Shown: one piece after another, positions 2,034-6,869 of the stretch
Layout of the letters: the number at the start of each line of letters is the position of its first letter
Position numbering within the stretch: the first letter of the stretch is position 1
Source of the DNA: a virus
Taxonomy: Duplodnaviria; Heunggongvirae; Uroviricota; Caudoviricetes
Virus record (IMG/VR): IMGVR_UViG_2531839195_000014
Direction: 5' to 3' (one strand)
Length of the DNA: 7,330 bases
Program-made: the position numbers and the translations under genes
The notes under the pieces: model-generated
Told to the model about the DNA's origin: nothing
Database searches by the model: none
The model's input: the letters and a program-made list of their open reading frames with translations, nothing else

Positions 2034-2097
2034 TGAGGTAGCCTGAGTTTAACGGACACTCCTTCCTGAAATAGAATGGCATCAGAAGGAGCTAATA

Positions 2098-2385
2098 ATG
2101 AGCAGAAAAACCCAACGTTACTCTAAAGAGTTCAAAGCCGAAGCTGTCAGAACGGTTCTTGAAAATCAACTTTCGATCAGTGAAGGCGCTTCCCGATTAT
2201 CCCTTCCTGAAGGCACTTTAGGACAATGGGTTACCGCCGCCAGAAAAGGGCTCGGTACTCCTGGTTCCCGCACGCTGGCTGAACTGGAATCTGAAATTCT
2301 GCAACTGCGTAAGGCGTTAAATGAAGCTCGCCTTGAGCGCGATATATTAAAAAAGCAACAGCGTATTTTGCACAGGAGTCGCTGA
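2098..2385 (+). CDS. IS600-like OrfA (helix-turn-helix transposase subunit), 95 aa
   Basis: Product MSRKTQRYSKEFKAEAVRTVLENQLSISEGASRLSLPEGTLGQWVTAARKG... then a leucine-zipper-like ILQLRKALNEARLERDILKK; RBS GGAG upstream. I recognise this as IS600 ORF1-like. Confidence 0.85.
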   Translation: MSRKTQRYSKEFKAEAVRTVLENQLSISEGASRLSLPEGTLGQWVTAARKGLGTPGSRTLAELESEILQLRKALNEARLERDILKKQQRILHRSR

Positions 2386-2434
2386 AAAATACGCGTTAAT
2401 CGAACAATGGCGACAACAATTTCCCATTGAAGCG

Positions 2435-3226
2435 ATGTGTCAGGTATTTGGTGTATCCAGGAGCGGTTATTACAACTGGGTACAGCATGAACCCTCAGAC
2501 AGAAAACAAAGTGATGAGCGGCTAAAACTGGAGATTAAGGTGGCACATATCCGCACTCGCGAAACATATGGAACCCGGCGGCTCCAGACGGAGCTGGCAG
2601 AGAATGGCATCATCGTTGGTCGTGACCGACTGGCACGTCTTCGTAAGGAGCTGAGGCTACGCTGTAAGCAGAAACGCAAGTTCAGAGCGACTACGAACCC
2701 GAACCACAATCTGCCAGTTGCGCCAAATCTGCTGAACCAGACGTTCGCTCCTACAGCACCAAATCAGGTCTGGGTGGCGGACCTGACGTATGTTGCTGGC
2801 ATCAAAGATGTTTATACGTGCGAAATTGTCGGCTACGCCATGGGAGAGCGCATGACAAAAGAGCTGACAGGTAAAGCCCTGTTTATGGCGCTCAGGAGCC
2901 AGCGCCCACCTGCCGGGCTAATCCACCACTCTGATCGAGGTTCACAGTACTGCGCATACGATTACCGGGTCATACAGGAGCAGTCTGGTCTGAAAACATC
3001 AATGTCGCGTAAAGGTAACTGTTACGACAACGCTCCGATGGAAAGCTTCTGGGGAACGCTGAAAAATGAGAGCCTGAGCCACTATCGTTTTAATAACCGG
3101 GATGAAGCCATCTCAGTAATACGGGAATACATTGAGATTTTCTACAATCGTCAGCGTCGTCACTCTCGTCTGGGGAATATCTCCCCGGCAGCCTTCAGGG
3201 AAAAATATCATCAGATAGCTGCTTAA
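2435..3226 (+). CDS. IS600-like OrfB (DDE transposase catalytic domain), carrying a 27-bp in-frame deletion
   Basis: ATG-initiated ORF; the frame is open from 2351 and is +1 relative to orfA. Contains WVADLTYV...HHSDRGSQY...NAPMESFWGTLKNE, typical of IS3-family DDE/RNase H fold transposases. Lacks the 9 codons TQEGWLYLA that are present in copies 2 and 3. Confidence 0.8.
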   Translation: MCQVFGVSRSGYYNWVQHEPSDRKQSDERLKLEIKVAHIRTRETYGTRRLQTELAENGIIVGRDRLARLRKELRLRCKQKRKFRATTNPNHNLPVAPNLLNQTFAPTAPNQVWVADLTYVAGIKDVYTCEIVGYAMGERMTKELTGKALFMALRSQRPPAGLIHHSDRGSQYCAYDYRVIQEQSGLKTSMSRKGNCYDNAPMESFWGTLKNESLSHYRFNNRDEAISVIREYIEIFYNRQRRHSRLGNISPAAFREKYHQIAA

Positions 3227-3250
3227 AAAAAGAACAAATGGTAGTGTCCG

Positions 3251-3895
3251 CTATTGCCAGTACACCTCAGCCTTAATTGCATCAGTCAGGCGGAGCAGGG
3301 CGGCATTATCCAGAGTTGTCGGTTCTGCCATGCCGCGTATGGCCAACAGCAGATTCTGGACATAGCTGTTTTCCTGATCCATCTCAAGAGCAGTAATGTG
3401 TTTGCGTTGTTCACGGGTGGCATGATGCAGGTATTTCAGATCCCCGGCAGCATACGTAAAAATGTGCAGAAGACGCTGTGTGAACCGCAAAGTGGCTACA
3501 GAGACTTCGCAATCCTGGCAATCCTCGTGGGCGTCTGCCTGCGCGTTTTCTTCCTGGCCTCCCGCCAGTTCTTTGGTTTCTTGAGCATTATCCTGGTGGT
3601 GAACGTCGTCTGGCGCTGCTCCCGGTTTTAGTTCCCATGTCATGGAGTCTTTGCTGAGTTGATAGCGTTCACTCCAGGTAAAATCGATCTCACCTTCAGG
3701 GGGAAGGTCATTAACGACAGGAAAATTTGTGGCAACAGCTTTAAAATAGTTGCTCAGTTTTTTACCTGACTTAACGAGCAGATAGTCCAGAGTGGTGCTG
3801 GTCGATTCAAAATCGTCGCTTGCCCACAGGACGACGTCAGGTTCACCGGATGATTTTTTCGCTTTCCGTAACAGGAAGAGTGGTTTTGTGCTCAT
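3251..3895 (-). CDS. hypothetical protein, about 208 native codons, 3'-truncated and fused to 5 IS-derived codons plus stop
   Basis: Long minus-strand ORF; ATG at rc 3893-3895 with GAGG 9 nt upstream (the listed ORF starts at TTG 3910). The protein has an N-terminal region, an acidic D/E/Q-rich linker ([32 protein letters not shown]) and a C-terminal region. The frame runs through the IS copy 1 junction at 3269/3270, so the last codons (EVYWQ, stop at 3251-3253) are IS sequence. I do not recognise a family. Confidence 0.5.
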
Positions 3896-3964
3896 TGTTT
3901 TTAACCTCAACTCAGATTAAAATTACTGCGAGTGATGAATAAATGTCCCAGGTTCTTCACTCAG

Positions 3965-4022: not shown

Positions 4023-4194
4023 TCAGATTTGCCAGAAATTCGGCTTTTTTTCTGCGGGCAGATTATTTCCGATGTAAACTAGGCACATTTTTGTGGCACC
4101 TTCAACAAGAGTTTTAAAGTTTCCTGATAGACCGTCGATATCAACTACAGTGAATGGGGTTTCTTTATTTTCTGTTTTAATTACGTAGCCAATA
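4023..4194 (-). pseudogene. 3' fragment (last 56 codons plus stop) of the 81-codon gene begun at 1957-2033
   Basis: Minus-strand frame reads (H)IGYVIKTENKETPFTVVDIDGLSGNFKTLVEGATKMCLVYIGNNLPAEKKPNFWQI then stop. Joining 1957-2033 to rc(4194-4023) restores an uninterrupted frame (…AAG CAT ATT GGC TAC…) with a shared TAT triplet at both junctions. The listed ORF 4023-4226 owes its first 11 codons to the IS terminus. Confidence 0.6.
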
Positions 4195-4237
4195 TGAGGT
4201 GTACTGGCAATAGCGGACACTACCATTTGTTCTTTTT

Positions 4238-5055
4238 TTAAGCAGCCATCTGATGATATTTTTCCCTGAAGGCTGCCGGGGAGATATTCCCCAGACGAGA
4301 GTGACGACGCTGACGATTGTAGAAAATCTCAATGTATTCCCGTATTACTGAGATGGCTTCATCCCGGTTATTAAAACGATAGTGGCTCAGGCTCTCATTT
4401 TTCAGCGTTCCCCAGAAGCTTTCCATCGGAGCGTTGTCGTAACAGTTACCTTTACGCGACATTGATGTTTTCAGACCAGACTGCTCCTGTATGACCCGGT
4501 AATCGTATGCGCAGTACTGTGAACCTCGATCAGAGTGGTGGATTAGCCCGGCAGGTGGGCGCTGGCTCCTGAGCGCCTTAAACAGGGCTTTACCTGTCAG
4601 CTCTTTTGTCATGCGCTCTCCCATGGCGTAGCCGACAATTTCGCACGTATAAACATCTTTGATGCCAGCGAGGTACAACCATCCCTCCTGTGTGGCAACA
4701 TACGTCAGGTCCGCCACCCAGACCTGATTTGGTGCTGTAGGAGCGAACGTCTGGTTCAGCAGATTTGGCGCAACTGGCAGATTGTGGTTCGGGTTCGTAG
4801 TCGCTCTGAACTTGCGTTTCTGCTTACAGCGTAGCCTCAGCTCCTTACGAAGACGTGCCAGTCGGTCACGACCAACGATGATGCCATTCTCTGCCAGCTC
4901 CGTCTGGAGCCGCCGGGTTCCATATGTTTCGCGAGTGCGGATATGTGCCACCTTAATCTCCAGTTTTAGCCGCTCATCACTTGTTTTCTGTCTGAGGGTT
5001 CATGCTGTACCCAGTTGTAATAACCGCTCCTGGATACACCAAATACCTGACACAT
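4238..5055 (-). pseudogene. IS600-like orfB, copy 2, frameshifted by a 1-bp deletion
   Basis: Copy 2 has TT at 4981-4982 where copies 1 and 3 have TTT (sense strand AAA to AA). Sense reading becomes ...RKQVMSG-stop shortly after the orfB start; the downstream catalytic region (4238-4951) is intact but out of frame. Confidence 0.8.
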
Positions 5056-5104
5056 CGCTTCAATGGGAAATTGTTGTCGCCATTGTTCGATTAACGCGTA
5101 TTTT

Positions 5105-5392
5105 TCAGCGACTCCTGTGCAAAATACGCTGTTGCTTTTTTAATATATCGCGCTCAAGGCGAGCTTCATTTAACGCCTTACGCAGTTGCAGAATTTCAGA
5201 TTCCAGTTCAGCCACCGTGCGGGAACCAGGAGTACCGAGCCCTTTTCTGGCGGCGGTAACCCATTGTCCTAAAGTGCCTTCAGGAAGGGATAATCGGGAA
5301 GCGCCTTCACTGATCGAAAGTTGATTTTCAAGAACCGTTCTGACAGCTTCGGCTTTGAACTCTTTAGAGTAACGTTGGGTTTTTCTGCTCAT
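5105..5392 (-). CDS. IS600-like OrfA, copy 2 (95 aa)
   Basis: Identical to copy 1 OrfA except L60V (…GSRTVAELE…). Confidence 0.85.
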   Translation of the reverse strand: MSRKTQRYSKEFKAEAVRTVLENQLSISEGASRLSLPEGTLGQWVTAARKGLGTPGSRTVAELESEILQLRKALNEARLERDILKKQQRILHRSR

Positions 5393-5456
5393 TATTAGCT
5401 CCTTCTGATGCCATTCTATTTCAGGAAGGAGTGTCCGTTAAACTCAGGCTACCTCA

Positions 5457-6228
5457 ATTCCCCAGACGAGAGTGACGACGCTGACGATTGTAGAAAATCT
5501 CAATGTATTCCCGTATTACTGAGATGGCTTCATCCCGGTTATTAAAACGATAGTGGCTCAGGCTCTCATTTTTCAGCGTTCCCCAGAAGCTTTCCATCGG
5601 AGCGTTGTCGTAACAGTTACCTTTACGCGACATTGATGTTTTCAGACCAGACTGCTCCTGTATGACCCGGTAATCGTATGCGCAGTACTGTGAACCTCGA
5701 TCAGAGTGGTGGATTAGCCCGGCAGGTGGGCGCTGGCTCCTGAGCGCCATAAACAGGGCTTTACCTGTCAGCTCTTTTGTCATGCGCTCTCCCATGGCGT
5801 AGCCGACAATTTCGCACGTATAAACATCTTTGATGCCAGCGAGGTACAACCATCCCTCCTGTGTGGCAACATACGTCAGGTCCGCCACCCAGACCTGATT
5901 TGGTGCTGTAGGAGCGAACGTCTGGTTCAGCAGATTTGGCGCAACTGGCAGATTGTGTGTTCGGGTTCGTAGTCGCTCTGAACTTGCGTTTCTGCTTACA
6001 GCGTAGCCTCAGCTCCTTACGAAGACGTGCCAGTCGGTCACGACCAACGATGATGCCATTCTCTGCCAGCTCCGTCTGGAGCCGCCGGGTTCCATATGTT
6101 TCGCGAGTGCGGATATGTGCCACCTTAATCTCCAGTTTTAACCGCTCATCACTTTGTTTTCTGTCTGAGGGTTCATGCTGTACCCAGTTGTAATAACCGC
6201 TCCTGGATACACCAAATACCTGACACAT
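5457..6228 (-). pseudogene. IS600-like orfB, copy 3, 1-bp insertion frameshift and 3' truncation
   Basis: Extra T at 5958 (GATTGTGTGTTCGGG versus GATTGTGGTTCGGG in copy 2) shifts the frame after ...RATTNPN. The 3' end is cut at 5457, and the listed ORF 5454-5888 terminates in copy 2 IRL sequence. Confidence 0.8.
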
Positions 6229-6277
6229 CGCTTCAATGGGAAATTGTTGTCGCCATTGTTCGATTAACGCGTATTTT

Positions 6278-6565
6278 TCAGCGACTCCTGTGCAAAATAC
6301 GCTGTTGCTTTTTTAATATATCGCGCTCAAGGCGAGCTTCATTTAACGCCTTACGCAGTTGCAGAATTTCAGATTCCAGTTCAGCCACCGTGCGGGAACC
6401 AGGAGTACCGAGCCCTTTTCTGGCGGCGGTAACCCATTGTCCTAAAGTGCCTTCAGGAAGGGATAATCGGGAAGCGCCTTCACTGATCGAAAGTTGATTT
6501 TCAAGAACCGTTCTGACAGCTTCGGCTTTGAACTCTTTAGAGTAACGTTGGGTTTTTCTGCTCAT
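6278..6565 (-). CDS. IS600-like OrfA, copy 3 (95 aa)
   Basis: Protein identical to copy 2 OrfA. Confidence 0.85.
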   Translation of the reverse strand: MSRKTQRYSKEFKAEAVRTVLENQLSISEGASRLSLPEGTLGQWVTAARKGLGTPGSRTVAELESEILQLRKALNEARLERDILKKQQRILHRSR

Positions 6566-6869
6566 TATTAGCTCCTTCTGATGCCATTTTATTTCAGGAA
6601 GGAGTGTCCGTTAAACTCAGGCTACCTCACATGTCTCTGGCGCAATGCCCGGGCTTTTTATTCGCACATCGTGAGGAATGCACCGTGGAAATTAAAAAAT
6701 CATTAATCCCCGTTATACCGAAAGTGGCGCAGTAGACTGTGACGTTTTTTTTGACGACAGGGACCAGGCAGTCCCCTACACAGCCACCGCTGATGATGTC
6801 GCACCGACGGGTCAGCGAATCTGGCAGGAACTGCAAAGTGGCAAATGGGGTGAGATAGCCCCATTCACT

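Follow-up and report, generated by a model that had tools for sequence, protein, structure and literature searches.

An undercalled adenine very probably accounts for the missing -1 frameshift arrangement of three IS600 copies in a Shigella flexneri draft contig

IS600 is an insertion sequence of the IS3 group of the IS3 family, and its recoding signal has already been catalogued. Sharma et al. (2014, NAR, PMC4066793) placed it in the cluster A_AAA_AAA_1, comprising 517 genes, in which the shift occurs at codon 86, OrfA is 100 aa long and the fusion product is 385 aa long. A hairpin is conserved in the cluster but an SD is not, and the cluster is marked as a true case. IS600 is described in the same paper, on unpublished data, as a proven example of -1 frameshifting stimulated by a stem-loop.

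The window analysed here, the whole stretch of 7,330 bp, is the entire contig AKMZ01000023.1 of GCA_000268025.1, a draft WGS assembly that is named Shigella flexneri K-404 in a published table (PMC6397287). It is a short, repeat-rich contig of that assembly and contains three IS600 copies, delimited by alignment to IS600 of pCP301, pWR501 and E. coli. Copy 1 lies on the + strand at 2034-3269 (1236 bp), copy 2 on the - strand at 4195-5456 (1262 bp) and copy 3, also on the - strand, at 5457-6629. Copy 3 consists of IS positions 1-1173 only and directly adjoins the left end of copy 2. The non-IS remainder of the window is decayed prophage DNA. It includes a DUF4376 gene, an antirepressor gene with the isrK and C4 RNAs ahead of it, and a fragment of a RecE/Exonuc_VIII gene that is cut off by IS600 copy 1. 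The Rfam scan revealed no frameshift-element family at the frameshift site, and its matches were only to unrelated prophage sRNAs. These were isrK at 789-865 (+, 56.6 bits) and the C4 antisense RNA at 889-976 (+, 75.7 bits), both above the gathering score; they lie immediately upstream of the antirepressor gene and extend over its start. Collectively, isrK, C4 and the antirepressor look like a P1/P7-type immunity module within the prophage remnant.

As deposited, all three IS600 copies read TT-A6-GC at the frameshift run, and AAAAAAG is present where a sequence-only reading of this DNA had placed it, at 2349-2355 (+), 5135-5141 (-) and 6308-6314 (-). The motif has 8 matches in the whole window against 2.25 expected by chance, and the three that matter here are one and the same site, repeated with each copy of the element. 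In copy 1, orfA as written extends from 2098 to 2385 (+) and encodes 95 aa with a Pfam HTH_Tnp_1 domain and an aberrant tail, QQRILHRSR. Its 0 frame passes through the site as TTA AAA AAG and reads LKKQQRILHRSR before the stop. Read in the -1 frame from 2349, the sequence gives KKATAYFAQESLKNTR up to a stop codon at 2397-2399, and the orfB frame is open in +1 from 2351 (KSNSVFCTGVAEKYALIEQWRQQFPIEAMCQ...) to 3226 (+); both had been noted before and were reproduced here. This frame encodes the DDE/rve part of the transposase (Pfam HTH_21, rve, rve_3 and rve_2). In each of the three copies, a -1 shift simulated on the deposited sequence gave a product of just 100 aa. The earlier description is thus accurate for the sequence as deposited, and the doubtful point is the true length of the run.

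The window copies were compared with IS600 elsewhere. Copy 2 matched IS600 on Shigella virulence plasmids (pINV) with 99.4-99.7% identity over 100% of its length, and most of these matches spanned 1264 bp where copy 2 has 1262. When the window copies were aligned with those of pCP301, pWR501 and an E. coli chromosome, mean column identity was 98%, and the ends were identical in the window and reference copies (TGAGGTAGCC... and ...GTACACCTCA). The sequence-only reading had proposed such an alignment as a check, and it revealed A7 in the references rather than the A6 of the window: the pCP301, pWR501 and E. coli elements are all 1264 bp long with TT-A7-GC (3/3), and the window copies are exactly one A short. 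In the PGAP-annotated E. coli chromosome record, A7 copies are joined as a 'programmed frameshift' transposase. A phased slippery heptamer with orfB at -1 is absent from the window as written but present in the reference and orthologous copies, and we attribute the missing -1 arrangement to an error in the sequence rather than to the element.

Insertion of one A produced a 100-aa OrfA ending in ILKKATAYFAQESLKNTR in all three copies and moved orfB from +1 to -1 relative to orfA. This is what the sequence-only reading had predicted for an extra base giving A7G, and the repair and the references agree on it; the true OrfA is 100 aa long and ends in ATAYFAQESLKNTR. Its other suggestion, an IS911-like AAAAAAGG variant, is not the sequence of IS600, as the references and orthologues have A7G. 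With the A restored, a -1 shift on A_AAA_AAA reads ...ILKKSNSVFCTGVAEKYALIEQW... into orfB. The repaired copy 1 encodes a 376-aa OrfAB, which is the length of the fused product called in three orthologous loci (L014, L018 and L021). Copies 2 and 3 are still broken after the repair, by further single-base indels.

A predicted hairpin, GCGUAUUUU...AAAAUACGC at 2361-2394 (+), begins 6 nt past the run and is probably the stimulator of -1 frameshifting, a role assigned from the folds and from the conserved hairpin published for the IS600 cluster. It has a 9-bp stem with a predicted energy of -13 to -14 kcal/mol, and in its 81-nt context it does not fold significantly better than shuffled sequences (z = -1.3). 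The hairpin was for this reason dropped as independent evidence.

To compare the same locus in other strains, we used as a marker the 214-aa RecE-fragment gene, which runs into the right end of copy 1, terminates there and so is specific to this insertion. Exact look-up found this gene in many assemblies, and ten other S. flexneri loci were compared, including that of the Sanger-finished 2457T chromosome (AE014073). The frameshift site was A7 in 19/19 IS600 copies at these ten loci. Among them are the copy 1 orthologues of L014, L018 and L021, which share with copy 1 a 27-bp in-frame deletion in orfB. Since it is common to these three, the deletion is real and serves as a lineage marker, and it probably inactivates copy 1. 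It lies at window position 2796/2797 and removes TQEGWLYLA just past the ADLTYV motif. Copy 1 is the 1264-bp reference minus these 27 bp and minus one A at the frameshift run (2349-2355, +), written as A6G in the window and as A7G in every reference and orthologous copy. Separately, in the copy 1 orthologue of five assemblies, including 2457T (L014, L015, L021, L022 and L023, at ~5565-5592 on the - strand), the base 3' of the A7 run is T rather than the G of the window (A7-TCAACAG). This is a real SNP directly 3' of the slippery site.

The unique DNA around the elements serves as the decisive control. The three non-IS segments of the window, 3.66 kb in total, were compared with their orthologues. 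There were 0 substitutions (one in L019, which matches only in part), and the only other differences on the window side were contractions of runs by one base, four relative to most orthologues and three relative to L018. They are at 859-864 (T6 in the window and T7 in 9/10 orthologues, L018 also having T6), 1689-1695 (A7 for A8), 3898-3902 (T5 for T6) and 6694-6699 (A6 for A7). Over the whole window, 0/28 runs of 5 were changed relative to the orthologues, and among the runs of 6 or more 7/15 were contracted and 0 expanded. Two of the contractions break genes that are annotated as intact in the orthologues. Restoring T7 at 859 recovers the full 282-aa ORF of the Phage_ASH/pRha antirepressor, and restoring A7 at 6694 recovers the full 205-aa ORF of the DUF4376 gene. 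A pattern that consists of contractions only, depends on run length, is free of substitutions and breaks genes is of the kind that homopolymer undercalling yields, and a living genome could not sustain contractions of this kind at this density. The contraction at 859 also falls within the isrK match.

The window has other peculiarities of structure. As written, copy 2 lacks a further base in a short run (AAAACAAAG to AAAACAAG) adjoining position 4983, and copy 3, besides its 3' truncation, carries one extra base at 5958 (GAACCACAA to GAACACACAA). Both indels are absent from the orthologous element, and neither is a long-homopolymer error. The stretch of IS600 sequence that separates the RecE fragment from the DUF4376 gene is 2435 bp long in the window (4195-6629). 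The nine measurable orthologous S. flexneri loci have a single IS600 of 1264-1265 bp there, and the extra length of copy 3 is missing from them. The junction of copies 3 and 2 is probably a repeat misassembly, or possibly a strain-specific partial tandem. Copy 3 carries locus-specific SNPs (A at IS position 41 and T at 490), and copy 2 carries generic alleles.

Reading the flanks directly, we found no 3-bp target-site duplications beside the IS600 copies of the window. In IS orientation, copy 1 is flanked by TAT and GCC (2031-2033 and 3270-3272) and the block of copies 3 and 2 by ATG and TAT (6630-6632 and 4192-4194). Such an absence would be in keeping with rearrangement by IS elements in a prophage that has decayed, and it does not count against the identity of the elements as IS600. 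TAT is common to opposite ends of the two inverted elements, which hints at an inversion of the intervening RecE fragment between IS600 copies.

Collectively, these results suggest that the K-404 draft assembly has undercalled the homopolymer length where the three IS600 copies read A6, a reading to which we give a probability of about 0.9, and that the element is an ordinary IS600. That sequencing or assembly was the cause we infer from three observations: the window differs in run length, it does so only at long runs, and the orthologous copies have A7. The sequence-only reading had offered an undercall, a shared 1-nt deletion and a non-canonical mechanism side by side; the evidence favours the undercall and lends no support to the other two. 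On the preferred reading, the real element would carry A7G, with an OrfA of 100 aa and orfB in the -1 frame, and OrfAB (385 aa in a full copy) would be made by canonical -1 frameshifting on A_AAA_AAA at codons 85-86, presumably aided by the hairpin 6 nt downstream. One error could appear in all three copies because the same sequence context was put to the base-caller and assembler each time, and pooling of reads from a multi-copy repeat probably contributed to the identical call. A search of the literature for the platform or genome announcement of K-404 (AKMZ, GCA_000268025) recovered only the strain name; we take drafts of this series and date to have been pyrosequenced. Against the undercall stand the records of A6 described below and the 3' A7 run of IS600, which keeps its full length at both of its occurrences in the window (3225-3231 and 4233-4239) and shows that undercalling did not strike every such run. 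This last objection is not strong, as about half of the long runs were affected and such errors depend on context.

The better of the two remaining explanations is that the slippery run has really lost 1 nt, in a deletion that the three copies inherited in common or acquired by gene conversion. This would leave them as non-autonomous pseudo-elements with a 95-aa variant of OrfA, making no OrfAB and mobile only in trans. The intact 3' A7 run suits this reading, A7 runs are mutational hot spots, and the copies bear other lesions, real or apparent, such as the 27-bp deletion and the further indels. There are also A6 copies on record. We searched the 85-nt site in 5,426 complete RefSeq E. coli genomes and used the ranked full-length rows; only 6 records among these genomes had the exact A6 site, RM13514 and RM12581 among them with A6 at the same locus, and the next-ranked matches all showed a single gap, as expected of A7. 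This rarity of A6 speaks for the undercall. Counts of A6 against A7 by identity band were confounded by partial alignments and were set aside. The 95-aa OrfA itself is recorded from 184 contigs in its V form and 25 contigs in its L form, with Logan assemblies among the sources; most of the L-form loci that were fetched belong to WGS draft records. The second A7 run of IS600 likewise varies between 6 and 7 in some draft assemblies that yield a 95-aa OrfA, which again favours the undercall. Strains other than K-404 may nevertheless harbour genuine A6 mutants. At the K-404 locus itself, a real deletion is improbable: the orthologous copies have A7 in 10 other strains, and up to 4 like contractions, two of them gene-breaking, occur in 3.66 kb of unique DNA with 0 substitutions, a density that, taken at face value, would put frameshifts in the genome by the thousand.

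Two further lines on the A6 copies were considered. PGAP labels the A6 copies of L025 (E. coli RM13514) and L026 (FDAARGOS_944) as 'programmed frameshift', and their joined CDSs (1258-2413) are 1156 nt long, one below normal. This label is applied automatically whatever the frame relationship and says nothing on mechanism. An attempt to define a real A6 lineage by linked SNPs (C/T at IS column 169, and G/C at column 242, the V/L change) was rejected because the loci had been retrieved via the A6-specific 95-aa protein, a biased sample, and because A6 occurs on several haplotypes.

Less likely still, and in our view hardly credible, is that A6G is real and that OrfAB is made from it by a -2 ribosomal shift on UUA_AAA_AAG or by transcriptional slippage from A6 to A5 or A8 in the mRNA. 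These routes would enter the orfB frame, giving ...ILKKSNSVF... or a product one Lys shorter. By inspection, a -2 shift from AAA_AAG brings the codon at 2354 (AGC) next, which is in the orfB frame, and transcriptional realignment is known in IS3-family elements. However, every argument for an artefact applies here as well, A6 is very rare in finished genomes, there was no sign that an A6 lineage is conserved, and the documented signal of IS600 is A_AAA_AAA with orfB at -1. If this explanation were true, the A6G sub-lineage of K-404 would be an IS3-family element with a switched mode of recoding. A mismatch-repair-deficient strain as the source of the indels was discarded, as there are 0 substitutions, every change is a contraction, and a density of 7 per 7.3 kb is incompatible with a viable genome.

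Taken as an undercall, the run holds no new biology, the A_AAA_AAA -1 frameshift of IS600 having been catalogued already, but it does offer a caution. When a single base is missing from the run, a textbook -1 site takes on the look of a +1 arrangement. The same kind of error breaks neighbouring genes and has given rise to a spurious 95-aa 'transposase' that is now widespread in protein databases. When IS elements are mined for unusual recoding, run lengths should first be compared with independent assemblies of the locus.

Over their full length the window copies are ~99.5% identical in nucleotides to IS600 of Shigella and E. coli (IS3 family, IS3 group, 1264 bp). They share with it the ends, orfA with HTH_Tnp_1, orfB with HTH_21 and rve, and the predicted hairpin after the run, and they differ from it in a slippery run that is one A shorter in all three. 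The differences from the orthologues resemble the homopolymer-length errors of draft assemblies: only runs of 6 or more are affected, always by contraction by one base, independent assemblies of the locus do not show the changes, and otherwise intact genes acquire spurious frameshifts. With the -1 programmed frameshifting of the IS911, IS150 and IS3 type, IS600 has in common the overlapping orfA and orfB, a slippery heptamer of Lys codons and a predicted stem-loop 4-10 nt past the motif, a trait of the IS3 family. That type uses A_AAA_AAG. The window had been read as having the same heptamer because one A is missing from it; the true phased heptamer of IS600, in contrast, is A_AAA_AAA.
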